Below, in pieces: positions 1-11,988 of a DNA stretch of 12,555 nt (position 1 is the first letter of the stretch; every line of letters starts with the position of its first letter). The notes beneath the pieces were generated by a model. It had not been told where the DNA came from and ran no database searches. It worked only from the letters and a program-made list of their open reading frames with translations. The stretch is from a virus (Duplodnaviria > Heunggongvirae > Uroviricota > Caudoviricetes), in the IMG/VR virus record IMGVR_UViG_3300006141_000002; one strand, given 5' to 3'. The position numbers and the translations under genes are program-made.

Positions 1-1
1 C

Positions 2-133
2 AACATCTACTTGAGTGGATTCAAAGGAGTTTTCAACTCAGTTCATTTCGAATTTTTCGAGGATGGCAACCCGCTCGACATATTTAGAGACAGGCGCTTC
101 AACCCGTACATAGGTGGTGGCCGCTGTGGATAG
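2..133 (+). CDS. 3' end of a hypothetical protein (5'-truncated by window edge)
   Basis: Frame open from base 2 (NIYLSGFKGVFNSVHFEFFEDGNPLDIFRDRRFNPYIGGGRCG) to TAG 131-133, overlapping the next GTG start as is typical for coupled phage genes. Confidence 0.45.
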   Translation, partial: NIYLSGFKGVFNSVHFEFFEDGNPLDIFRDRRFNPYIGGGRCG

Positions 134-473
134 CGACAATGAAATCATTGTGACGAAACATGCGGAGCGGCGTATCAGGCAGCGGCTGGGTATCAATAAG
201 AAATCTACTGAAAAGGCGGCGGAGAAGGCTCTCCAGTTCGGAATCGCCCATTCTGAGGCAAAAGGGAAACTCTCCAGACACATGGATGGAATTTTTCTCT
301 TAAACTACAGACCGACGAATATGCGGGTTTACAACCACGCTGTGTATTTGTTCAGGGACACAAAGCTGATTACAGTTTTGCCGCTTCCTAAGAATCTTTG
401 GACTTGCGCTGATAAACTGCAGCGTCAAAAGAAAGAGGTACAAAATGGAGATTTTCAAAGTGAAAGACTATAA
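126..473 (+). CDS. Hypothetical phage protein with N-terminal T-x-HA-x-x-R-x-x-QR motif (DUF4258-like)
   Basis: ORF 114..473; GTG at 126 chosen because GGTGGT SD-like sequence lies upstream; motif VTKHAERRIRQR. Confidence 0.6.
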   Translation: MDSDNEIIVTKHAERRIRQRLGINKKSTEKAAEKALQFGIAHSEAKGKLSRHMDGIFLLNYRPTNMRVYNHAVYLFRDTKLITVLPLPKNLWTCADKLQRQKKEVQNGDFQSERL

Positions 474-738
474 GCGTTTCGCTGACAGTCTTGAGGATAA
501 TACCGGATGTGTGGTCACTATCCGGCTGATAGGGAAGAATCATACTCATTACCAACTGGATAAGCGTGGTCTCTCCCTCGGCGTTCTGTGCGTTGATAAG
601 GGGGAGCTGTCGTTTGCGCCGTTTGTCACGCTTGATAGCGCTCAGAACGACCAATATATCAACGCAAAATATATCCCTCTGTTCGATGATTTTATCGGGC
701 TTTTAGGTGTGCTCCGCGAGATGTTCGTGGAGGATTAA
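445..738 (+). CDS. Hypothetical protein
   Basis: 97-aa ORF, SD GAGG upstream of ATG 445, overlaps previous gene. Confidence 0.65.
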   Translation: MEIFKVKDYKRFADSLEDNTGCVVTIRLIGKNHTHYQLDKRGLSLGVLCVDKGELSFAPFVTLDSAQNDQYINAKYIPLFDDFIGLLGVLREMFVED

Positions 739-758
739 GCAAAGGATGTGATTTTTTA

Positions 759-1109
759 ATGAGATGTACTCTGTGCGATAGGTGTAAGAAGATCGTGGAG
801 AACGAGCGCAAGATTAAGGTCGTAACCTATGCGAGACCTCTGGAGTCAAAACCTGGCGTCAGGTGCCCAGCCCCTGCGAATGACCGGCAAATGAACGACC
901 ATATCTGGACGAAGGAACTGTGTCCGGAATGCGCTCTGGCGTTTGAGAGCTTCATGGATATGGAAGATAACTCTGGAACTGGCGGAGGAACTACCGGCGG
1001 AGATACTCCCGGCGACAACACAGGAGATGTGACCGACGGAGATACCGGTGATGGTGGTAACACTGGCGGCAGTGGCGATACTGGCGGCACAGGCGAAACA
1101 ACTGAATAA
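759..1109 (+). CDS. Small Zn-binding phage protein (CDRC...CPEC) with acidic Gly/Thr/Asp low-complexity C-terminal tail
   Basis: Two CxxC pairs in first 60 aa; tail GTGGGTTGGDTPGDNTGDVTDGDTGDGGNTGGSGDTGGTGETTE. Confidence 0.7.
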   Translation: MRCTLCDRCKKIVENERKIKVVTYARPLESKPGVRCPAPANDRQMNDHIWTKELCPECALAFESFMDMEDNSGTGGGTTGGDTPGDNTGDVTDGDTGDGGNTGGSGDTGGTGETTE

Positions 1110-1123
1110 AATGTCAGTTTGAT
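1106..1123 (+). repeat. Junction motif copy 1 ATAAAA-TGTCAG-TTTGAT
   Basis: Full match to ATRAAA-N6-TTTKRT; includes TAA stop of 759..1109. Confidence 0.75.
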
Positions 1124-1132
1124 GGGTGAAAA

Positions 1133-1561
1133 ATGAATACAGAGCTTATGTTCAGCAGCAAGACGGATCAGTGGTCAACGCCGCAAAATTTCTTTGATTC
1201 GTTGAATGAAGAGTTCTCTTTTACGCTCGACCCATGCGCAGATTCATCAAATCATAAATGTGAAAGATATTTCACCAGAGAAGACGATGGCCTGCGCCAG
1301 CCGTGGGGGGGGGAGACAGTCTTCTGTAATCCACCATATGGCCGGGCAATAAAAGACTGGGTGAAGAAATGCTATGAAGAAGCACAGCAGCCGAATACGA
1401 CTGTTGTGCTTCTTATTCCTGCCAGAACGGATACGGCATATTTTCACGACTACATATACCAGAAAGAAAACGTGGAGACCAGATTTCTTCGTGGCCGCCT
1501 GAAATTTGGGGACGGAAAGAATTCGGCTCCATTCCCGAGTATGGTAGTGATTTTCCGATAA
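1133..1561 (+). CDS. Phage DNA N6-adenine methyltransferase (phage Dam family)
   Basis: SSKTDQWSTPQ N-terminus, FTLDPCA SAM-binding motif, catalytic FCNPPY, LLIPARTDT, FLRGRLKF, APFPS - characteristic of the short phage Dam family. Confidence 0.92.
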   Translation: MNTELMFSSKTDQWSTPQNFFDSLNEEFSFTLDPCADSSNHKCERYFTREDDGLRQPWGGETVFCNPPYGRAIKDWVKKCYEEAQQPNTTVVLLIPARTDTAYFHDYIYQKENVETRFLRGRLKFGDGKNSAPFPSMVVIFR

Positions 1562-1575
1562 CAGAACGATTTGAG
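1558..1575 (+). repeat. Junction motif copy 2 ATAACA-GAACGA-TTTGAG
   Basis: 2 mismatches; includes TAA stop of adenine methylase. Confidence 0.5.
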
Positions 1576-1590
1576 AAGCGGAGGTACGTG

Positions 1591-2088
1591 ATGATTGATG
1601 TTGGTGGAGCGCAATGCTTTGCGTGTGATGAATGTCCTATCGTAGAGCAGCTTGAGCAGCGGCTTTCAATAGCGGCTAAGTATCCGGAATACGGTGGGTT
1701 CCAATTTGATCACTGTGGCTGCGATAAAGTCGATAACGAATTTTGGAACGGCGGTTACTGTGAAGACGCATGGACACCTATGCCGGCACATCACAATGCC
1801 GGGCAAAGGATGACTGGTCGTGCCTACAGACGCAAAATGCACCAGAAAACCATCAAGAAGTACCGCGACAGAGATAATTGGGGCGGATGGCGAAATGCAC
1901 CGTGTATTTGCGGTCGCTGGTCAGATGGAGAATATGTGCCCGGCACTTACATCAGGTATCCTAAAAGTTCCGCAAACAAGGTGTTCTTTAAGCGTGTATC
2001 AAATAAGAAAGTAAGACGCACCATGGAAATTCCTCCCAAAGGGAATATGTACCGCAGAATCTTTGATTACTGGTGGACGATTGATTAA
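1591..2088 (+). CDS. Conserved hypothetical phage protein, Cys-rich N-terminus and basic C-terminus (paralog A of 11497..11988)
   Basis: SD GGAGG at 1580-1584; CFACDEC/DHCGCD/GYCED; C-terminal KRVSNKKVRR...KGN.YRR.FDYWW; about 60% identical to 11497..11988 by manual alignment. Confidence 0.8.
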   Translation: MIDVGGAQCFACDECPIVEQLEQRLSIAAKYPEYGGFQFDHCGCDKVDNEFWNGGYCEDAWTPMPAHHNAGQRMTGRAYRRKMHQKTIKKYRDRDNWGGWRNAPCICGRWSDGEYVPGTYIRYPKSSANKVFFKRVSNKKVRRTMEIPPKGNMYRRIFDYWWTID

Positions 2089-2199
2089 ATCAAATCCACC
2101 TTCAGCCCAATCAATTCGGTGGGCTGAAATTTCAGTGCAACATATGCTCTGAAATTTGAACCCATCGGAACAATGCCAGTAACTGATGGCATACTCTGG

Positions 2200-2217
2200 A
2201 TGAAAGTGTGGTTTTAT
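2200..2217 (+). repeat. Junction motif copy 3 ATGAAA-GTGTGG-TTTTAT
   Basis: Full match; 1 nt before ATG 2219. Confidence 0.72.
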
Positions 2218-2218
2218 C

Positions 2219-2545
2219 ATGGAAATAAAGCTGAAGACTTGTCCGTTCTGTGGAGGGAAAGCGATAATGGAGGCATGGGATATGGTTCCATTCGAAAAGA
2301 TTCATCTCGGTGGTGATGGAAAATGGTACGGAGTATCCTGCAGTGAATGTGAGTGTAGCGGACCGGATAGATTGAGTATAGATGAAGCAGCGCAAGCGTG
2401 GAATAAACGCATGGAGTCAAAAGATGCGATTCAGATTATACAATGCAAGGATTGTAGATTCAGAGAAGGTGCCCCAGGGCAGCCAAACATCATGTGTGGA
2501 AATATGAAAGATGATGATTTTTGCAGCTACGGGGAAAGACGATGA
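2219..2545 (+). CDS. Lar-family restriction alleviation protein fused to a second small Cys domain
   Basis: LKTCPFCGGKA...VSCSECEC...EAAQAWNKR (Lar signature) followed by IQCKDCRF...DDFCSYGERR. Confidence 0.78.
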   Translation: MEIKLKTCPFCGGKAIMEAWDMVPFEKIHLGGDGKWYGVSCSECECSGPDRLSIDEAAQAWNKRMESKDAIQIIQCKDCRFREGAPGQPNIMCGNMKDDDFCSYGERR

Positions 2546-2559
2546 AAGGTAACTGTTAT
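2542..2559 (+). repeat. Junction motif copy 4 ATGAAA-GGTAAC-TGTTAT
   Basis: 1 mismatch; spans TGA stop 2543-2545 and overlaps ATG 2558. Confidence 0.65.
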
Positions 2560-2824
2560 GCGTAAGAAAATTGCTATGCGCTGGAGGAGACAGGCGTTGC
2601 GGCAGGGAGCAGTCATTAAAGAAGAGGGTGCAATTCTAAACAGATCTGATCGGGCCCTTTGTAATATCAGAAAGAAAGACATCGGATTTGGTATTACTGC
2701 TATACATAATGGATGGACGTATCATATTGTAGCGAATGATGCTCTTAATGCGTATAAGTTGTTTGTTCGGTCAATAAGCGGCGAGAACGTTGTTTATGAA
2801 TGCAAAAACGGAGAAGTATTTTAA
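2558..2824 (+). CDS. Hypothetical protein
   Basis: 88-aa ORF filling the gap between neighbours; ATG overlaps junction motif at 2542-2559. Confidence 0.6.
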   Translation: MRKKIAMRWRRQALRQGAVIKEEGAILNRSDRALCNIRKKDIGFGITAIHNGWTYHIVANDALNAYKLFVRSISGENVVYECKNGEVF

Positions 2825-2846
2825 TCATAAAAATGGGGGTTATTTT

Positions 2847-3206
2847 ATGGCAATTATAGAGGAAATGAATGACCTATTGTCACAGGTTCAAGAAAAGTAC
2901 GATCAAGTGTGTATGCAGCGAGATCATCTCCAGAAACGTCTTATGGAGTTTAACGCAGAAGAAGAGATTCAAAAAGCAAAGGAGCGTGTAAACAGCGCAT
3001 ATCGGCATAGTCTCCATGTAATGTCTGACAAGGAGATGGATGCGAGAGACAGGTTTGTTCAAAGGCATTATGAAACGTGTTCCTGCGGCAAAGCTGGAAT
3101 TACTTTTGAGTATGGGCTGACCGGAACTGGAATTGGTACGGCAATATACATTCGCTGTACGAAGTGCGGGGAGCAAGAGGATATAACCGATTTTGACAAC
3201 TGGTAA
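2847..3206 (+). CDS. Hypothetical phage protein, N-terminal coiled coil and C-terminal CxxC Zn ribbon
   Basis: ORF 2790..3206; ATG 2847 after GGGGG SD-like run; EEMNDLLSQVQEKYDQV heptads; RCTKCGEQEDITDFDNW. Confidence 0.68.
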   Translation: MAIIEEMNDLLSQVQEKYDQVCMQRDHLQKRLMEFNAEEEIQKAKERVNSAYRHSLHVMSDKEMDARDRFVQRHYETCSCGKAGITFEYGLTGTGIGTAIYIRCTKCGEQEDITDFDNW

Positions 3207-3247
3207 AAGCGGCTGCCATGGGAATGATGGGAATGATGGATGGTTTT

Positions 3248-3472
3248 ATGGCAGATATAAAATTAAAGCCTTGCCCATTCTGCGGCGGAGAGGCAAAAAT
3301 GAAACATGGATATCCGGGCCAACAGCGTGCAGGAATGCGCCAAGCAGTTGTTCAGTGTAAAAGTTGTGGATGCCGAACAGTAACGTACCGGCAGTTGCCC
3401 TACCAGCCTTGGAAAGAGGTAGATGAGCAGGCAATATTTGTATGGAACCGTCGGATAGTGAGTGAGGGCTGA
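3248..3472 (+). CDS. Lar-family restriction alleviation protein
   Basis: IKLKPCPFCGGEA...VVQCKSCGC...AIFVWNRR; ORF track start 3218, ATG 3248 preferred. Confidence 0.8.
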   Translation: MADIKLKPCPFCGGEAKMKHGYPGQQRAGMRQAVVQCKSCGCRTVTYRQLPYQPWKEVDEQAIFVWNRRIVSEG

Positions 3473-3479
3473 TTTTATA

Positions 3480-4142
3480 GTGAAAGAATTAGACGACATC
3501 GTTTTAATCAATGCTATATCTCGTGAGACAATAAAAGAGAATGAGGTATACACCTTTGCCCTGCGGCTGTGTGACAACGACATTGACCGAGACTTTGAGC
3601 GGTTCGGCGATAGCACTTTAGAGGAGCTGTCCCCCATGTTCGTGGGTAAGGCCGGTATCTTTGACCACCGGTGGTCGGCGAAGGGGCGGGTGGCACACAT
3701 CTATCGAACCGAGGTGGTTGATGATGGTGGTGCCATCACCAGTGATGGACGCCCTCGTCGCTTTCTCAAGGGTTGGGCTTACATGATGAGAACGCCAGAA
3801 AATGCCGCAATCATAGATAAGATTAAAAGAGGCATTAAACGGGAGGTTAGCGTTGGCTGCGCCGTGGAACAGGTGCTGTGTTCTATTTGCGGGAGGCCCA
3901 TAGATGAGTGTCAGCACAAAAAGGGCACTGAGTATAACGGTAAAATGTGCTGTGGATTGTTAGTTGGAGCAAAAGACGCTTATGAATGGGCTTTTGTAAC
4001 AAATCCAACTGTGGCTGATGTGCTAATTCCGGTAGACAGCGAAATGCTCAAATGGCTCGATATGAAGCAGTTTCCAGAGGATTCACAAGAACTCGTTGAT
4101 GCAATCAGGGAAGCTGTGTATCTCGCTTATAAACGAGCATGA
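3480..4142 (+). CDS. HK97-type prohead-protease-like protein (orphan, no scaffold extension)
   Basis: LCDNDIDRDFERF, GIFDH (His), KREVSVGC (Ser), CSICG...CQH Zn insert, DAYEWAFV.NP; resembles (from recall) protease-like genes found beside capsid genes in Oscillospiraceae; GTG 3480 follows GAGGG. Confidence 0.7.
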   Translation: MKELDDIVLINAISRETIKENEVYTFALRLCDNDIDRDFERFGDSTLEELSPMFVGKAGIFDHRWSAKGRVAHIYRTEVVDDGGAITSDGRPRRFLKGWAYMMRTPENAAIIDKIKRGIKREVSVGCAVEQVLCSICGRPIDECQHKKGTEYNGKMCCGLLVGAKDAYEWAFVTNPTVADVLIPVDSEMLKWLDMKQFPEDSQELVDAIREAVYLAYKRA

Positions 4143-4156
4143 AAGGTTAATTTTAT
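4139..4156 (+). repeat. Junction motif copy 5 ATGAAA-GGTTAA-TTTTAT
   Basis: Full match; includes TGA stop of protease-like gene. Confidence 0.75.
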
Positions 4157-4179
4157 TTACATATGAGAGGATGTAAATA

Positions 4180-5334
4180 ATGAGAATCGGAATAATTGAT
4201 GCAGACTTAATCGGGAGGAAGAAACACAGATTTCCAAACCTTGCGTCAATGAAAATAAGCGCATATCACAAAAACGCCGGAGACGCTGTTTTCCTTCTTC
4301 TGAACTATGATACGGTAGGAGAATACGACAAGGTTTATATCTCAAAGGCGTTTACTGACACCATAGTACCAGAAGCTGTTGTTAGCGCAGAGAACGTGAC
4401 GTGTGGAGGGACGGGGTTCTTTTACGAAAATGCCCCTCCCCTTCCGGCAGAGATAGAGCACATCATGCCGGACTATCATCTGTACGATGAGTGGGTAAAC
4501 AGCCAAATCCAGAGCGGCGCAAACAGGACTAATTTCGTCTATTACCTTGACTACTCGATTGGTTTTCTGACAAGGGGCTGCTTCAGACAGTGCGATTTTT
4601 GTGTGAACAAGAACCATACGCAGTGTGTCCAGCATTCCCCTGTTTACGAGTTTATGGATGAGAGCAGGCCAAAGCTATGCCTGCTGGACGATAACTTTTT
4701 TGCCTGTCCTCAATGGAGAGAAATTATAACGGAAGTAAAAAAGACTGGCAAACGGTTTCAATTCAAGCAGGGGCTTGATGAGAGGTTGTTGACTGACGAA
4801 AAGATTGATGACCTTATGGCCTGGAATTATGATGGTGATTATATATTTGCGTTTGATAATATCGCTGATAGAGAAATCATCGAGAGCAAACTAAGGCGGA
4901 TAAAGGAAAAGTATCCAGATACAAAAAAGCACTTCAAATTCTATGTTCTTTGCGGGTTTGATAGAGACGGGAAATGGGATGAGAGGTTTTGGTTAAACGA
5001 CATTCGAGACACGTTTGAGAGAATCAGGATACTTATACGCTACGGAGCAATCCCGTATATCATGCGATATGAGAAGTGCTATTCTTCAGCTTATCATGGT
5101 ATGTATTCTTGCCTTGCCGGATGGTGTAATCAGCCAAGTATCTTCAAAAAGTTTACGTTTCGAGAATACTGTATGTGCAAAGGTATGGGTGATAAGCGAT
5201 ATTCCATTTATAAGCGAGATGTCGCATCATACTTGAATGGCGGATGGCCCAAGGGTTCTTCATGGCGTTACATGGAAGAGTTTGAGCAGGGGAATAACGA
5301 AATTGCTGCTGCTTACTTTGATATGGCGGCATAA
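4180..5334 (+). CDS. Radical SAM domain protein (phage-associated)
   Basis: CxxxCxxC motif TRGCFRQCDFC (4579-4602), LLDDNFF, QGLDERL, FAFD, YVLCGF; N-terminal FPNLASMKISAYHK..GD.V domain; SD GAGAGG. Confidence 0.9.
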   Translation: MRIGIIDADLIGRKKHRFPNLASMKISAYHKNAGDAVFLLLNYDTVGEYDKVYISKAFTDTIVPEAVVSAENVTCGGTGFFYENAPPLPAEIEHIMPDYHLYDEWVNSQIQSGANRTNFVYYLDYSIGFLTRGCFRQCDFCVNKNHTQCVQHSPVYEFMDESRPKLCLLDDNFFACPQWREIITEVKKTGKRFQFKQGLDERLLTDEKIDDLMAWNYDGDYIFAFDNIADREIIESKLRRIKEKYPDTKKHFKFYVLCGFDRDGKWDERFWLNDIRDTFERIRILIRYGAIPYIMRYEKCYSSAYHGMYSCLAGWCNQPSIFKKFTFREYCMCKGMGDKRYSIYKRDVASYLNGGWPKGSSWRYMEEFEQGNNEIAAAYFDMAA

Positions 5335-5340
5335 ATTACG

Positions 5341-5358
5341 GTAAAAGAATAATTTGGT
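5341..5358 (+). repeat. Junction motif copy 6 GTAAAA-GAATAA-TTTGGT
   Basis: 1 mismatch (first base); between radical SAM and MazG-like genes; followed by GGTGAA SD. Confidence 0.7.
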
Positions 5359-5369
5359 GGTGAAAATTG

Positions 5370-5672
5370 ATGACAAAAAGCGAAAATTTGCTTGTAACAC
5401 TGACAGAAGAGTGTGCCGAAGTACAACAGGCAGTTTCCAAGGTGCTACGTTTTGGACGGAGCAACTACAATCCAGCAACGCCACAAGTGACCAATGAACT
5501 GGAAGTTTTAACTGAGTATTATCAGCTTATTGCAGTAATGGAGATGCTGATAGACAGCGGTGTACTTAAACAACTCGGTGACTATGAAATCGAAAAAATC
5601 AAGTCATCCAAGAAGTATAAGGTTGAACTTCACCAATCCATATCACAGGATTGTGGCTGTATAAAAGATTAG
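5370..5672 (+). CDS. MazG-like nucleotide pyrophosphohydrolase
   Basis: LTEECAEVQQAVSKVLRFG first helix motif of the all-alpha NTP-PPase superfamily; second acidic motif degenerate (TEYYQL). Confidence 0.62.
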   Translation: MTKSENLLVTLTEECAEVQQAVSKVLRFGRSNYNPATPQVTNELEVLTEYYQLIAVMEMLIDSGVLKQLGDYEIEKIKSSKKYKVELHQSISQDCGCIKD

Positions 5673-5678
5673 TTTGAT
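5661..5678 (+). repeat. Junction motif copy 7 ATAAAA-GATTAG-TTTGAT
   Basis: Full match; contains the stop codons of both convergent genes. Confidence 0.75.
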
Positions 5679-6331
5679 GAGTTAGTCAATGCAAAGAAAA
5701 AGAAAGAGAATAGAAAATTAGAAATACAGTTTGAAATAATGATTTTTTTGATTGGGAGCTGTTCCCCTAATAGAAAGACAAATCCGCTAACAACAAAAGA
5801 GAACCAGGCTGGCAAATACGAAAGTGCTGCTGCACAATTTAGGATGCACGATATTGTATTTGGAAACGTGCCAACAAAAAATGGCGTTCCAGGATTTTGG
5901 ATGCAGGTATACCATAAGGTCCATACAATAATGAATGCAAGATTGCATATAAATCCGGTTACAAAAGTGAAAAGAAATCTTCGATTGTGAAGCCTTTCTG
6001 AAAAAATCTGAGCCCCAAACATAAAAATAGAAGATGCAATAAAAAGCTGCATGAAAAAATTTGTAAGATTTGGCGGCAATCCAAAAAGATTATTAGCTGT
6101 AAGTATGAATTTTGATATTTTTTCAAAAAGCATTTCAATGATATCTGTAAAAAATATGTAAAAAGCAACAAAACACAATAGTGAACAAACACTTATTAAA
6201 AGAATAATTGGCACTCTATAAGAAATTTGTGGATTCTTAATCTTCTCAGTGATAATAGACACAAGTGGCGGTATAAAAATTCCTAAGATAGCAAGCATAG
6301 CCATAAAAAAGTCTTTGTATTCTTCAAGCAT
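5669..6331 (-). CDS. Polytopic membrane protein (about 5-6 TM helices), moron-like
   Basis: Only convincing minus-strand gene; ATG 6331 with SD GGTGAG; hydrophobic Phe/Ile-rich segments; very AT-rich (25% GC in 5701-5760, 22% in 6121-6180 by count); own promoter. Confidence 0.78.
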   Translation of the reverse strand: MLEEYKDFFMAMLAILGIFIPPLVSIITEKIKNPQISYRVPIILLISVCSLLCFVAFYIFFTDIIEMLFEKISKFILTANNLFGLPPNLTNFFMQLFIASSIFMFGAQIFSERLHNRRFLFTFVTGFICNLAFIIVWTLWYTCIQNPGTPFFVGTFPNTISCILNCAAALSYLPAWFSFVVSGFVFLLGEQLPIKKIIISNCISNFLFSFFFFALTNSSN

Positions 6332-6381
6332 TGTTATCTCACCCGGCTATCGTGAATTGGTATTGGAAATTTACAAAACAC

Positions 6382-6410
6382 ATTATATCATGAAAAAATA
6401 AAAATGTCAT
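6382..6410 (-). promoter_or_regulatory. SigA/sigma70-type promoter for the minus-strand membrane protein gene
   Basis: Minus strand: -35 ATGACA (6410-6405), 17-nt spacer, extended -10 TGA-TATAAT (TATAAT 6387-6382). Confidence 0.75.
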
Positions 6411-6428
6411 ATAAAATAAAGTTTTTAC
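6411..6428 (+). repeat. Junction motif copy 8 ATAAAA-TAAAGT-TTTTAC
   Basis: 1 mismatch; directly abuts the -35 box of the minus-strand promoter. Confidence 0.62.
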
Positions 6429-6435
6429 GGAGTTG

Positions 6436-6822
6436 ATGGCAGGTATGCTCAGTTTTGAATCTTATAAGAATTTTAGAAACTATCTTGACAACACAACAGA
6501 AACCACTGTGCTACCAGTAGGGCAATCTGCAAAAGTGTTTTGTGGAAATTGTGAGGTAATTTATAAGACAGATGACAGAGGAATTATGAGTATTGCTCGT
6601 TGTATCCCAGCTCATGGTTTTTACCTCTTTGAAATCTGCGCTACTTATGCAAAAACAATTCCACCATGTACTTACTACAGGCTGGGTAAAACAATGAATG
6701 AGGCCAAGCGGGATTTCAAAGCTGTAATGGGTGACTGGATGAAGATTATAGTTGCCAGGTTAATTCCGCCAGGCGAAGAGGCAGAATCAATACTAACCAA
6801 TCCAATACGGGTTCCATTATGA
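6436..6822 (+). CDS. Hypothetical protein
   Basis: 128-aa ORF, SD GGAG at 6429-6432 right after junction motif. Confidence 0.65.
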   Translation: MAGMLSFESYKNFRNYLDNTTETTVLPVGQSAKVFCGNCEVIYKTDDRGIMSIARCIPAHGFYLFEICATYAKTIPPCTYYRLGKTMNEAKRDFKAVMGDWMKIIVARLIPPGEEAESILTNPIRVPL

Positions 6823-6832
6823 AGCAGTGTAT

Positions 6833-6850
6833 AGCAAATAGAATTTTGGT
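6833..6850 (+). repeat. Junction motif copy 9 AGCAAA-TAGAAT-TTTGGT
   Basis: 2 mismatches in left arm; followed by GGTGAA SD as in copies 6 and 10. Confidence 0.55.
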
Positions 6851-6859
6851 GGTGAAGTG

Positions 6860-7132
6860 ATGAGAATAACAAAATCATCTGGTGAAGCGGCTTCGTTTAC
6901 TGCCATGAAGGTTGCGGCAAACGCTGGGTGCAACGTGTGCCCATGTTGTGGCGAGACAAAATCATGGGCTCAGTACATGAAAGAAGGCGTGTATAACAAA
7001 GGCGTTATGGCTGGTGCCCTCAATAAAACCTGGGTCGAGGGAGTATTCCATATGAGAAGCATGAAGTGCGACTGTTACAAATGCTACTCATGTGGGGCAG
7101 AGTGGGAGAGCGAGCCATATCAGTGGGCATAA
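6860..7132 (+). CDS. Small Cys-rich Zn-ribbon phage protein
   Basis: CNVCPCCGE...KCDCYKCYSCGAEWESEPY; SD GGTGGTGA. Confidence 0.68.
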   Translation: MRITKSSGEAASFTAMKVAANAGCNVCPCCGETKSWAQYMKEGVYNKGVMAGALNKTWVEGVFHMRSMKCDCYKCYSCGAEWESEPYQWA

Positions 7133-7146
7133 AACAGAACTTTGGT
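7129..7146 (+). repeat. Junction motif copy 10 ATAAAA-CAGAAC-TTTGGT
   Basis: Full match; includes TAA stop of 6860..7132; precedes capsid-like gene. Confidence 0.75.
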
Positions 7147-7157
7147 GGTGAATAACG

Positions 7158-8093
7158 ATGAGATACAATGGCGTTAGGTTAGAAAAAGGTATGTACCAGG
7201 AGCATGGGCGCACATTCAGTCATGTGCTGGAAAGTATTGACCCAAGCAACCAATACGTTGGCACGCCCCTGGAGGGACTGGACGCTTTTCAGCGCCAGCT
7301 CAAGCGCTTCGACATCAAGGTGAAGGGCGCTCAGTCCGATACGGTTGAAAAATTCTTTGCCACAACAGAATCAGCGGTACTTTTCCCTGAATATGTTGCA
7401 AGAGTGGTGCAGCGTGGTATGGAAGAGTCGGATATAGTTCCAATGATTACCGCCTCTGTAACGAGAGTTGATGATGAGGAACAGGTCGGGAACACTCGGG
7501 CGAATCTACGCAAGAGGGGACGGCTGTTAGTTTCCGGTTATGATGCAGTCCGCGCACAAAAGTTGGATTTGTTCTCTGTTACATTACGCCAGATTGGCTC
7601 TTACATCGCACACACTCGTTTGGAGGACGCCGTAGACGTTCTTGTTAATGGAGATTGCAATAGCAAGGCCGCCGAGGTAGCATCTCTAAACGGGCGTATC
7701 TTCGGATACAATACGCTGCTGGATTTTTGGGCCCAGTTCGACCCATACGAAATGAACATCGCCCTTGCATCCAACGATATAGCCCTCGATTTGTTGAAGA
7801 TGCCTGAGTTTCAAAACTCGTCTGCTGGATTCAGCTTTCAGCAACCGCATTGTGTCACCATGCCATTTGGGCCTATGCTGATTCGTTCTAACGCTGTGCC
7901 ACAAAACACAGTGATTGGAATCGACAAGCGCTTTGCTCTTGAGATGGGGCAAGTTGGAGATGTAACAACGGAATACGATAAGCTCATCAACCGTCAATTT
8001 GAGAGAACTGCCATCACTATTATCAGTGGATTCTCAAAAATCTATGATGAAGCAAGTCGAGTTTTAAGCACCTCATTGCAAAAGAAACGGTAA
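7158..8093 (+). CDS. HK97-fold major-capsid-like protein, apparently with internal (E-loop) deletion
   Basis: LEKGMY, LDAFQRQLKRFDIKVKG, VLFPEYV, LRKRGRLLVSGYD, LDLFSVTLRQIG, EYDKLINRQFERTAIT..SGF: matches (from recall) the capsid-like protein family of Oscillospiraceae; intact 311-aa frame. Confidence 0.75.
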   Translation: MRYNGVRLEKGMYQEHGRTFSHVLESIDPSNQYVGTPLEGLDAFQRQLKRFDIKVKGAQSDTVEKFFATTESAVLFPEYVARVVQRGMEESDIVPMITASVTRVDDEEQVGNTRANLRKRGRLLVSGYDAVRAQKLDLFSVTLRQIGSYIAHTRLEDAVDVLVNGDCNSKAAEVASLNGRIFGYNTLLDFWAQFDPYEMNIALASNDIALDLLKMPEFQNSSAGFSFQQPHCVTMPFGPMLIRSNAVPQNTVIGIDKRFALEMGQVGDVTTEYDKLINRQFERTAITIISGFSKIYDEASRVLSTSLQKKR

Positions 8094-8259
8094 CTCAGGT
8101 TGTAATGCGGAATATGGGATTGAAAGCGTCCATCATCTAAGGAGTGGGACGAAGCAGCATGGCTGTGGATAATGGGAAGGCACCCCGTAACTGGTAAGAC
8201 TGCCCTCCCTTTGGCGTAAAAACACACCATATCATTTATAAATCATACTGGAGGTACAT

Positions 8260-8610
8260 ATGAAAAAGAAGTTTACTGCTGTGGCACTTTTTATCGTTCT
8301 GCTTATGGGACTGGCGGCTTGTGCGTCCAAAGGCACAAAGGGGTACGAGTCAAACACGGGGCTGGTAGCTATCCCTGGTTTCAACGACTTGTACTACGAT
8401 AGCCAGACCAAGGTTGTGTATTTCGTGTTCAATGAGTGCTCTGGGTATCAGGGGTATGGGTATATGTCTGCCTACTACGCCCCGAATGGGCTCCCATATC
8501 TCTACGACCCATTCAATCAGGAATTGGCTGAAATTAGTTATGCACCGACCGAGCAGACCGAGAATCTCCAACCAAATTTTCTTTCAAGGGGAACGAATAG
8601 CGGATTATGA
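8260..8610 (+). CDS. Predicted lipoprotein (DUF6440-like phage lipoprotein)
   Basis: Signal peptide MKKKFTAVALFIVLLMG + lipobox LAAC; YYDSQTKVVYFV...GYMSAYYAPNGLP; SD GGAGG. Confidence 0.75.
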   Translation: MKKKFTAVALFIVLLMGLAACASKGTKGYESNTGLVAIPGFNDLYYDSQTKVVYFVFNECSGYQGYGYMSAYYAPNGLPYLYDPFNQELAEISYAPTEQTENLQPNFLSRGTNSGL

Positions 8611-8624
8611 AGCTACGCTTTGGT
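8607..8624 (+). repeat. Junction motif copy 11 ATGAAG-CTACGC-TTTGGT
   Basis: 1 mismatch; includes TGA stop of lipoprotein gene. Confidence 0.65.
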
Positions 8625-8631
8625 GATGAAA

Positions 8632-8805
8632 ATGCAATATAAGTTCGGTGATGTTCTGATATACACCTCGCCGCAAGACTCCACTCGCAAAACTCCGTGT
8701 GTGTTCATACGGGATGAGAAAGGTCGAGCAGTCGTATGTTTTCGGCGTGCGGAGTGGGCGGCAAGAGTAAACTACCAGTTTCTGTCGAAACAGGAAGCAA
8801 TATAA
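8632..8805 (+). CDS. Small hypothetical protein
   Basis: ORF 8620..8805; ATG 8632 follows GGTGA; MQYKFGDVLIY... fills gap between genes. Confidence 0.55.
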   Translation: MQYKFGDVLIYTSPQDSTRKTPCVFIRDEKGRAVVCFRRAEWAARVNYQFLSKQEAI

Positions 8806-8810
8806 TAAGT

Positions 8811-8969
8811 TATGCGGTGGCGGAATAGGTAGACGCTAATGTCAGATAGGATGGCCTATCGGTTCGATTCCGACGGCTCTTAACCACGGTGAAATAGCCG
8901 ACAGAGCAGGGGCTGATTTGGTACAAGGGAGTGGACATCCATGTAGGGTGCAAATCCTTGCCCGTATAA
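8811..8969 (+). ncRNA. tRNA-like RNA (Leu/Ser-type D-arm, T-arm, acceptor stem) with large structured insert in place of the anticodon loop
   Basis: Acceptor TATGCGG 8811-8817 / CCGTATA 8962-8968; D-arm GCG-GAATAGGTAGA-CGC; T-arm GTAGGG-TGCAAAT-CCTTGC; ATGTC 8839-8843 / GACAT 8934-8938 closes the insert; no anticodon identifiable; no encoded CCA. Confidence 0.62.
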
Positions 8970-8988
8970 CGATTCAAGGAGGCAGGCC

Positions 8989-11496: not shown

Positions 11497-11988
11497 ATGA
11501 TTGATGTTGGAGCAAAGAGTGTGTGTTTCGCCTGCGACGAGTGCGGTATTCACGAGCAGATTGAACGCAGAATGCAGGTCGCCCGTGAGCTCGGGGAAAA
11601 TCTCCAATACGACCATTGTAGTTGCGACAAAGTCGGAGATGAGTTTTGGGCCGGAGGGTACTGCGAGGACGCTTTTGCTGAGAAACCCTCCAAAAGAAAT
11701 GAAGTCAGGCGCAAAACGGGCCGTGCGTACAGGCGCAAAATGCGCCGCAAGACCATCAAAAAGTATCGCATCCGGGATGGTCAGGGGTGGTCGTTTGGGC
11801 CACACATCAACGGGCATTGGGAGGGCGATGAATATGTCCTTGGCAATTACGTTGAATATCCCAGAAGCTCAAAAAACAAGGTGTTCTTCAAGCGTGTGTC
11901 GAACAAGGCAGTCCGCCGGAGTGAAAGCCTCCCGCTCAAGGGGAACGGATACCGTAAGGTGTTCGACTACTGGTGGACGATTACTTAG
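11497..11988 (+). CDS. Conserved hypothetical phage protein (paralog B of 1591..2088)
   Basis: SD GGAGG; MIDVG..CFACDEC, DHCSCDKV, GGYCEDA, TGRAYRRKM, NKVFFKRVSNK, FDYWWTI shared with paralog A. Confidence 0.82.
   Translation: MIDVGAKSVCFACDECGIHEQIERRMQVARELGENLQYDHCSCDKVGDEFWAGGYCEDAFAEKPSKRNEVRRKTGRAYRRKMRRKTIKKYRIRDGQGWSFGPHINGHWEGDEYVLGNYVEYPRSSKNKVFFKRVSNKAVRRSESLPLKGNGYRKVFDYWWTIT

Follow-up and report, generated by a model that had tools for sequence, protein, structure and literature searches.

Short conserved boundary sequences, at which unrelated modules could be exchanged by homologous recombination, are part of the modular theory of phage evolution (Susskind and Botstein; Clark et al.; discussed in PMC3029335) and have rarely been found. 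In T4-type phages, promoter-early stem-loops (PeSLs) undergo crossovers between the -10 box, the Shine-Dalgarno (SD) sequence and the ATG (Arbiol et al. 2010, PMC2839356; Comeau et al. 2014, PMC4122927). Start-associated sequences (SAS/ESAS) of cluster K mycobacteriophages are discussed for a role in translation, and the passages concerned mention none in gene exchange (PMC3203893). Here we describe a 12,555-base stretch of a tailed phage (Caudoviricetes; IMG/VR record IMGVR_UViG_3300006141_000002), hereafter the window, with an array of accessory genes at about 3460-8630. Its gene junctions bear the motif ATRAAA-N6-TTTKRT, which a preliminary description of the DNA had read as marking a candidate integron-like gene-cassette array. 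Eight of these junctions carry cores that keep a fixed order among related phages while the genes between them change. We read the locus as an unusually clear natural example of phage mosaicism that is probably driven by short boundary sequences, and not as an integron.

The window comes from mouse-gut metagenomes, and nearly all of its genes lie on the + strand. Related sequence is carried by mouse-gut metagenomes of 14 studies and by IMG/VR viral contigs. The array-bearing phage is large; locus L006, which is 100% identical over most of the window, lies in a record of 141.5 kb. Megablast of the window against the GenBank phage collection returned zero matches. Four window proteins served for exact-protein look-ups, three of them with 384, 125 (6445-6822) and 165 amino acids (aa; 1591-2088) and the fourth capsid-like. 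With 131-323 index blocks listed for each, the look-ups led to 38 contigs, which with six related IMG/VR contigs make a comparison set of 44 loci plus the window. The 24 sequencing runs were used as assembled contigs, in which the uncovered parts of RNA-library contigs are uninformative. A scan of IMG/VR for the pattern ATAAAA-N6-TTTGGTGGTGA gave 66 stretches, mostly single matches unrelated to the window by blastn, and 12 contigs related to it.

The junctions are occupied by linkers of 15-26 bases that combine a stop codon, an A/T-rich spacer and a ribosome-binding site. Their constant core is 15 nucleotides (nt) long, ATRAAA followed by a boundary-specific 6-nt spacer and TTT, and mostly continues into the SD sequence GGTGGTGA. 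Relatives share blocks of 93-100% identity with the window and differ from it in gene content, and the blocks stop sharply at the motif. Shared blocks start in the window at 4139, 5660, 6410/6411, 7129 and 8607 and end at 5362/5363, 5676/5679, 6855/6856 and 8632; linker zones contain 15 of the 18 window breakpoints. Across 35 loci, 118 of 212 unique homology ends lie within the 3.5% of sequence that is linker zone (binomial 7e-112), and about 35 further ends are linker-adjacent, outside the strict definition of that zone. Overall, ~56-72% of homology ends map to linkers. The proposal, made in the preliminary description, that gene-content breakpoints of relatives should fall inside the motif is thus strongly borne out. 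Breakpoints were found at 8/12 motif-bearing junctions of the window versus 1-2/12 motif-free ones (Fisher p = 0.009-0.036). In 48 of 77 cases, shared sequence begins at motif position 1; of 41 last shared bases, 19 fall on position 15/16 and another 19 on positions 18-26 (after TTTGATG, TTTGGTGGTG(A) and similar endings), with right block edges also just after the SD sequence TTTGGTGGTGA.

Further material shows the same joints. Contigs of four sequencing runs, from three studies, break or join at 4139, 5362/3, 5660, 5678/9, 6411 and 6856. A prospective test with the protein of 6445-6822 yielded ten further contigs, and the three new upstream neighbours and one new downstream neighbour that they contained were all joined at the same nucleotides. 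Minor variants also stand beside the main form in one DNA run, one joining 5363 to 6411 (depth 9.8 versus ~50) and one, an X1 variant, joining 8626 to 8977 (depth 9.7 versus ~30); therefore, several forms coexist in one sample. Crossovers are seen at several linker positions (before 1, after 15/16, after 19, after 22/23 and after 26), a spread expected from exchange anywhere within a stretch of identity. The ends of identity fall outside the spacer on both sides, which is compatible with exchange at a fixed position and is no demonstration of it. Other breakpoints lie inside genes, between diverged alleles (2074, 7116 and 8534), and alleles of 6445-6822 are mosaic, which shows that general recombination acts across the region.

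Eight spacer classes recur across the relatives (ggctga, ggttaa, gaataa, gattag, taaagt, tagaat, cagaac and ctacgc; cores a to h), and the seven well-sampled classes have 4-12 distinct flanks per side. The cores occur in the same order in 47/47 sequences, with no class present twice in one locus. None of the 556 ordered pairs of the segment maps is in conflict, and all 681 locus pairs, with 961 high-scoring segment pairs, are collinear. A gene end always retains its spacer class, the sole cross-class case linking cagaac and tagaat, which differ by 2 nt. Because the order of the spacers is fixed, none is duplicated and the flanks vary, the cores are fixed slot boundaries between which genes are exchanged.

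The contents of the slots are combined freely. The gene at 6445-6822 has at least nine different predecessors and six successors, an identical 384-aa protein is encoded in arrays with three predecessors and three successors, and the reverse gene 5669-6331 recurs as a single block downstream of three different genes. Reverse-strand genes with promoters and terminators of their own are frequent in slots d-e and f-g, where they lie flush with the cores; those of slot d-e differ in other loci. A single block, the RNA-like block 8810-8973, was seen in more than one slot; it follows core h in the window and elsewhere directly adjoins core f (L001, L007, L009 and L184) or core d (L190). Outside the hypervariable region there are no cores, and ~10 kb of conserved genes downstream contain none. 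A single class core is present in G003, a complete 138.6-kb relative, and four lie within 1.3 kb in G002; the remaining matches are ATGAAA gene starts or background, so that the cores do not form a genome-wide signal.

Each boundary contributes its own set of joints (Table 1). At core a, homology with L186, L190 and L191 stops at 3478 and gives way to three different continuations; relatives have ATGAAAGGCTGATTTTAT(G) at this core. At core b, the homology block of L002 and of the X16 and X1 contigs has its first base at precisely 4139. Homology stops at core c (5362/5363) in seven loci with three different continuations, and joints at the same place appear in four sequencing runs. Core d, where blocks begin at 5660 and end at 5676/5679, contains on the other strand the stop of the reverse gene 5669-6331. 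At core e, at least nine different upstream sequences are joined exactly at 6410/6411, and at core f homology stops at 6847 or 6855/6856 with six different continuations. A block begins exactly at 7129 (core g), where the X1 contig also starts. The match of 100% identity to G001 begins at 8607, where G001 has ATAAAA-ctacgc (core h), and a block end lies at 8632. No exchange is seen at the copies at 1106, 1558, 2200 and 2542, as region 1-3206 is collinear and invariant in all 20 or more contexts examined; the break at 2074, near the 2200 copy, falls inside the end of the upstream gene. Dam orthologues in L003 and G003 occur without these left-part copies.

Table 1. Boundary cores, unexchanged motif copies and other features; positions are those of the window unless a relative is named, and flanks are numbers of distinct flanks
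Feature	Coordinates	Strand	Details
Core a	3461-3478	+	ggctga, degenerate AGTGAG-ggctga-TTTTAT in the window; flanks 5 left, 7 right
Core b	4139-4156	+	ATGAAA-ggttaa-TTTTAT; stop of 3480-4142 inside; precedes the 384-aa gene; flanks 8 left, 8 right
Core c	5341-5364	+	GTAAAA-gaataa-TTT + SD GGTGGTGA; after the 384-aa gene; flanks 4 left, 5 right
Core d	5661-5679	+	ATAAAA-gattag-TTTGATG; TAG stop of 5370-5672; flanks 10 left, 11 right
Core e	6411-6428	+	ATAAAA-taaagt-TTTTAC, then GGAG and start of 6445-6822; flanks 12 left, 7 right
Core f	6833-6856	+	AGCAAA-tagaat-TTT + SD GGTGGTGA; flanks 5 left, 7 right
Core g	7129-7152	+	ATAAAA-cagaac-TTT + SD GGTGGTGA; precedes the capsid-like gene; flanks 7 left, 4 right
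Core h	8607-8630	+	ATGAAG-ctacgc-TTT + SD GGTGATGA; flanks 2 left, 1 right
Motif-like junction copy	1106-1123	+	tgtcag spacer, exact match; no exchange seen
Weak motif-like junction copy	1558-1575	+	2 mismatches; no exchange seen
Motif-like exact copy	2200-2217	+	before Lar-family gene 2219-2545; no exchange; nearby break 2074
Compact stop-SD-start linker	2542-2559	+	ATGAAA-ggtaac-TGTTATG, one mismatch; no exchange seen
384-aa protein	4180-5334	+	content of slot b-c; no Pfam match
Membrane-protein gene	5669-6331	-	AT-rich; fills slot d-e; own promoter 6410-6382
125-aa protein	6445-6822	+	content of slot e-f; function not assigned
RNA-like block	8810-8973	+	conserved, non-coding; sharp left edge; 88-95% identity across lineages
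Phage Dam methylase	1133-1561		Pfam; upstream of array
Lar-family proteins, two	2219-2545 and 3218-3472		Pfam
Capsid-like protein	7158-8093		weak Pfam match
Prophage end beside integrase	L003 14700-14760; L040 (oriented) ~5218; G002 6800-6860		in relatives

Two linker types, mixed in the preliminary list, can be told apart by the position of the SD sequence. It lies within the left half of the compact type, A-TGA-AAGG-N4-TTTT-ATG, and downstream of the right arm in the long type, A-TAA-AA-N6-TTTGGTGGTGA-N4-6-ATG. The sequence GGTGGTGA is found 4-8 nt upstream of start codons. When junction contexts were collected by the SD sequence only (GGTG[GA]TGA), ~26 of ~31 also carried TTT and ATRAAA at a fixed distance (hand count), making the long linker a coherent repeat of ~26 nt. 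Many spacers hold a second stop codon in another frame (gatTAG, ggtTAA, ggcTGA, TAAagt, TAGaat, gaaTAA), and the gene 5370-5672 terminates at a spacer stop. The spacing is constantly 6, symmetry is confined to AAA/TTT, and conservation ends at positions 1 and 15/16. Position 3 varies between A and G only, as stop codons TAA and TGA do. Folding against shuffles detected no RNA structure at seven linkers (z -1.3 to +1.0), and an eighth folded stretch, 4129-4185, contains a hairpin just downstream of core b (z = -2.1). Sigma-70-type promoters and terminators occur at background level and not at linkers, the exception being the promoter of the reverse gene beside 6411.

Enrichment of the motif is clear. 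The exact form ATRAAA-N6-TTTKRT occurs five times on the + strand of the window (1106, 2200, 4139, 5661 and 7129) against 0.03 expected from 200 dinucleotide shuffles, and allowing one mismatch raises this to 16 strand-hits (10 places; 1.04 expected). A search for the 17-mer TRAAA-N6-TTTKRT returned the same six matches that the preliminary description named. In 1.31 Mb of more distant relatives only 14 exact + strand matches were found, most inside genes, so that the motif is ~37 times denser in the window. In 80 more distant loci with homologues of the 384-aa protein, it occurs at background level and mostly inside genes.

Several details given in the preliminary description hold on recounting: all eleven listed copies are gene junctions, the upstream stop codon occupies motif positions 2-4 in six, and the right arm runs into the SD sequence in four (TTTGGTGGTGAA at 5353, 6845 and 7141; TTTGGTGATGAA at 8619). 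Others need correction. The listed copies at 1558 (ATAACA...TTTGAG) and 6833 (AGCAAA) have two mismatches each; 6833 is backed by relatives, which have ATAAAATAGAATTTT at the equivalent position, whereas 1558 lacks such support. One additional match with at most one mismatch, at 6303, lies within the minus-strand gene, and a degenerate twelfth copy at 3461-3478 (AGTGAG-ggctga-TTTTAT) had been overlooked. The arms had been described as inverted repeats, but they are only weakly palindromic with AAA/TTT as their common part, and the usual right arm TTTGGT is the beginning of the SD sequence TTTGGTGGTGA rather than the complement of ATAAAA. The "fully variable" spacer does differ among the copies of the window, but across relatives it is conserved for each array position.

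The integron-like model is contradicted on several points, namely the fixed order of the cores, their single occurrence, their staying in place, the lack of attC-like structure and the exchange of like with like. The preliminary description regarded each gene as a mobile unit inserted or excised at the motif; the cores do not travel with the genes. It also invoked the tolerance of Tn916-type integrases for heterologous 6-bp spacers, which does not fit gene ends that stay with their own class and exchanges between like spacers. Tyrosine-recombinase core sites consist of two inverted arms of ~7-13 bp around a 6-8-bp overlap, at whose borders a cognate recombinase exchanges strands at fixed positions. 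The attC sites of integrons are imperfect inverted repeats of 57-141 bp that fold into hairpins and travel with the cassette; the cores are 15 nt long, fold no better than shuffles and stay put as their neighbors change. Like integron cassettes, the genes here are mostly promoterless, same-strand, small and unrelated, with a short conserved junction element. They differ in that junction elements remain while genes change, in strict collinearity, and in having reverse-strand genes with their own promoters among the contents. Integrons have an adjacent attI and a divergently transcribed IntI-type tyrosine recombinase, neither of which adjoins this array; the Int of the relatives is Tn916-type, on the same strand and downstream. 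Reshuffling of cassettes is likewise not seen, as only the RNA-like block changes slot. Finally, since no core class is duplicated, insertion of circles through a single site is excluded, and the pattern is slot replacement between fixed boundaries, not circle insertion and excision at a common site.

Likeness to other site-bounded systems lies in behavior. Spacer variants of lox and FRT have arms of 11-13 bp, and pdif modules of Acinetobacter plasmids are bounded by Xer sites. Conserved arms, a 6-nt spacer, same-spacer exchange that keeps order and orientation, and modules bounded by sites are shared with these systems; the arms here measure 6 and 3 bp, and the resemblance is not one of membership. 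A Xer/dif-like site was rejected on the same ground, as the conserved arms are too short.

The cores are closer to elements that act in phage mosaicism. Like PeSLs, they are short conserved intergenic elements flanking small non-essential open reading frames (ORFs) in a hypervariable region, with crossovers inside the element; insertions, deletions and replacements between close relatives and a proposed role as homology patches are also common to both. By the PeSL hallmark of an element that flanks ORFans in a hyperplastic region and contains the crossovers of indels and replacements, the cores qualify. In contrast, PeSLs have a sigma-70 promoter and a terminator stem-loop, whereas the cores, at 15-26 nt, contain no promoter, terminator or stem-loop; by the strong sigma-70-like early promoter and stem-loop terminator they are not PeSLs. 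A further mark of PeSLs is that neighboring elements recombine into mini-circles. The boundary-specific spacer and fixed rank are further differences, and the phage is not T4-like. As in the boundary sequences of modular theory, short conserved sequences at gene or module boundaries would be sites of homologous exchange between unrelated modules, and here they are conserved between unrelated modules with breakpoints concentrated on them; what differs is an ordered series of eight with one common arm-spacer-arm pattern. The SAS are also one-orientation repeats at the ribosome-binding-site position, a few bases before starts and in the non-structural part only, with the upstream stop codon sometimes inside the repeat. 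Their sequence (GGGATAGGAGCCC) is different, however, and SAS form a single consensus with no position-specific variants. An SD-containing repeat 3-8 nt before many starts is present here as well, which makes SAS an analogy rather than a family to which the cores belong. New are the minimal 15-nt arm-spacer-arm core, the position-specific spacers in fixed order, and the many, sharply delimited natural recombinants of a gut phage group; the kind of element is known from PeSLs.

Genes for recombination enzymes lie near the arrays of some relatives. The preliminary description suggested looking for a tyrosine recombinase elsewhere in the element; one is present in all five larger relatives, but none was found in the window, in whose proteins Pfam detected no recombinase. 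A Tn916-type Int (Integrase_DNA and Phage_integrase) and Xis are encoded on the same strand, 1.5-3 kb downstream of the core clusters of relatives, and no integrase adjoins the array in the window-type contigs examined. RecT and RecA families were not found in the five relatives, which is not informative on the window's own phage, and one relative, G002, encodes an ERF-family annealing protein. Several lineages have HNH_3/AP2 endonuclease genes directly upstream of their arrays, and in some a 175-186-aa protein with Sigma70 region 2 only is encoded there.

Further features were noted at these flanks. A prophage end beside the Tn916-type Int reads ...ATAAAATTTTTATCC or ...CACCATAAAATTTTTATCC, then three variable bases (ATT, TCC or TGT), then GGATA(T)AA, and its flanks are the same in G002 and L040 and different in L003. 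This end is probably the att core, its coupling sequence being variable. Other enzymes are encoded directly upstream of the same array in some lineages: L183 encodes a 503-aa large serine recombinase at 2010-3521 (Resolvase, Recombinase and Zn_ribbon_recom) and L176 a reverse transcriptase at 1-128 (RVT_1).

Taken together, the core anatomy, the abrupt breakpoints, the unchanging order of the cores, their combinatorial flanks and the coexistence of variants in one sample are best explained, in our view, by translation linkers that probably act as short-homology crossover points, as do PeSLs or lambdoid boundary sequences. The array is divided into slots by its eight cores, each of which would serve as an intercistronic translation linker. 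Such a linker would terminate the upstream ORF, often with stops in two frames, provide an A/U-rich stretch free of structure, and hold or adjoin the ribosome-binding site of the next ORF. To judge from these sequence elements, the linkers likely function in translation. The cores are the only sequence common to unrelated neighboring genes and would thus be the crossover points between related phages or prophages. One crossover within a core would swap everything to one side, and two in the cores flanking a slot would replace its content. Since each boundary has its own spacer, exchange would take place only between equivalent boundaries, and gene order would be kept. The exchange itself likely proceeds by short homology, through general or phage single-strand annealing recombination or template switching, rather than by a dedicated enzyme.

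Several observations weigh against this explanation. Identity over 15-26 nt is short for efficient homologous recombination, and among the five relatives only the ERF protein of G002 was found as a candidate, with no RecT or RecA. The eight cores share ATRAAA and TTT at a spacing of exactly 6 nt around differing spacers, and the constraints of a stop codon and a pre-SD stretch would not obviously fix that spacing by themselves. Joints are flush at cores even where the neighbor needs no SD sequence, as with reverse-strand genes and with the RNA-like block at cores f and d; the core-f joint shares ~1-2 nt with the sequence preceding that block in the window (alignment read by eye). The left-part copies without exchange indicate that the motif alone does not predict a junction of exchange, and the translational role is read from sequence only.

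These points bear on whether a dedicated enzyme acts at the 15-bp core, be it a tyrosine or other site-specific recombinase or a nicking or homing nuclease that binds the arms and needs identical spacers. The eight classes would then be heterospecific variants of the lox/FRT kind, and the array a natural instance of recombinase-mediated cassette exchange. Conserved arms around a spacer that varies between classes and is strictly kept within each would be expected of such a site, as would like-with-like exchange if identity of the overlap is required, the very sharp edges at positions 1 and 15/16, and joints that abut reverse-strand genes and the RNA-like block without a gap and, at core f, have little far-side microhomology. 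Candidate enzymes are at hand in the tyrosine recombinases of all five larger relatives, with the downstream Int and Xis, and in the HNH_3/AP2 endonucleases. Yet the arms are no more than 6 and 3 bp long, with symmetry limited to AAA/TTT, sites are unrelated outside the 15 bp, and apparent crossovers spread over at least five positions. Moreover, the att junction of the neighboring Int has arms TTATCC-NNN-GGATAA, unlike the cores, the window-type contigs examined lack an integrase beside the array, and the roles of stop, SD and start explain much of the conservation. The absence of duplicated classes also excludes insertion of circles at a single site. We consider a core-specific enzyme unlikely and leave it some weight because of the fixed 6-nt spacing, the flush joints and the ~1-2 nt of homology at the core-f joint. 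A shade less probable still is the fuller form of this idea, in which a phage or host enzyme reads the arms and demands identical spacers, making the array a natural multi-slot cassette exchange with addressable slots in fixed order.

Joints at cores could also arise if the cores were purely functional translation and termination signals, with illegitimate recombination producing joints and selection keeping those at ORF ends. Stops and SD sequences inside the cores fit this, the joints of cores to the RNA-like block look illegitimate on one side, and illegitimate recombination with selection is the favored general model of phage mosaicism, boundary sequences usually being absent (PMC3029335). 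Against this, the same nucleotide recurs in dozens of independent joints, with no residual foreign intergenic sequence and no variation of a few bases, and identical 15-nt cores adjoin mutually unrelated genes. Cores are kept even where their stop or SD sequence is unused, as at core c, whose upstream stop lies 7 nt earlier, and at core d, where a reverse gene comes next. More distant relatives, whose ribosomes must be similar, lack the core family. This account seems to us improbable, and we give similarly little credence to a mainly regulatory motif (an operator or stoperator, a phage sigma promoter, or an RNA-processing or translational-repressor site) at which recombination is incidental. 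The single orientation, the position at gene junctions and the overlap with stops do recall the stoperators of cluster A mycobacteriophages, and ATAAAA is loosely like the T4 late promoter, TATAAATA. Stoperators, however, are present in many copies over the whole phage genome, a distribution not found here (one class core in G003, four clustered in G002), and the restricted distribution of the motif makes a T4-late-like promoter unlikely. A similar resemblance holds for SAS/ESAS (PMC3203893), and the Sigma70 region 2 protein upstream of some arrays could point to a phage sigma factor; G002 to G006, in which no Sigma70_r2 gene was found, have cores nonetheless. A regulatory motif is further opposed by the lack of cores in the conserved downstream genes, by sigma-70-type promoters and terminators that are neither enriched nor coincident with cores, by the absence of RNA structure at linkers, and by a position 3 restricted to A and G as in TAA and TGA.

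Other observations concern the genes of the window. Besides the families in Table 1, Pfam detects a YAcAr/SLOG protein and an OGG-like glycosylase, and the remaining window proteins match no Pfam family. The 384-aa protein has CFRQCDFC at residues 134-141 (CxxxCxxC), the radical-SAM cluster motif, and homologues in 293 IMG/VR stretches at 31-66% identity. The hairpin UUUACAU...AUGUAAA at 4153-4180 surrounds the SD sequence (GAGAGGAUG) of its gene (-7.1 kcal/mol, z = -2.1) and could be a translational control element. The Dam methylase gene contains a run of nine G (1305-1313), at which one DNA run shows a 1-nt deletion, and gene calls differ among contigs, some giving an intact gene (142 aa) and others a broken one (72 or 91 aa) or none; this could be phase variation of the methylase or homopolymer error in sequencing or assembly. 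Paralogous Cys-rich proteins are encoded at 1591-2088 and 11497-11988, each after a DNA methyltransferase gene, and the homology break at 2074 sits in the 3' end of the first. The gene 8260-8610, read from the DNA, encodes a small protein that has a lipobox-like LAAC and what looks like a signal peptide, and G001 and L024 have other sequence in place of its 3' part after 8534. ARAGORN and Rfam searches of the window, including block 8810-8973, found nothing.

Whether phage mosaics are built through short boundary sequences or through random illegitimate joints filtered by selection has been a question for decades; boundary sequences are usually not found (PMC3029335). The array offers eight ordered cores, dozens of natural recombinants with 93-100% shared identity, nucleotide-exact joints and variants within one sample, and so makes the question directly testable. 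It also provides an annotation rule for such arrays in uncultured gut phages of this group, namely to divide them at their cores. Lar-family proteins, a lipoprotein and membrane-protein morons are among the slot contents, which are likely genes of anti-defence and host interaction, and a Dam-family methylase gene lies upstream of the array. The linkers may therefore be a means of rapid re-assortment of such genes in this phage group.

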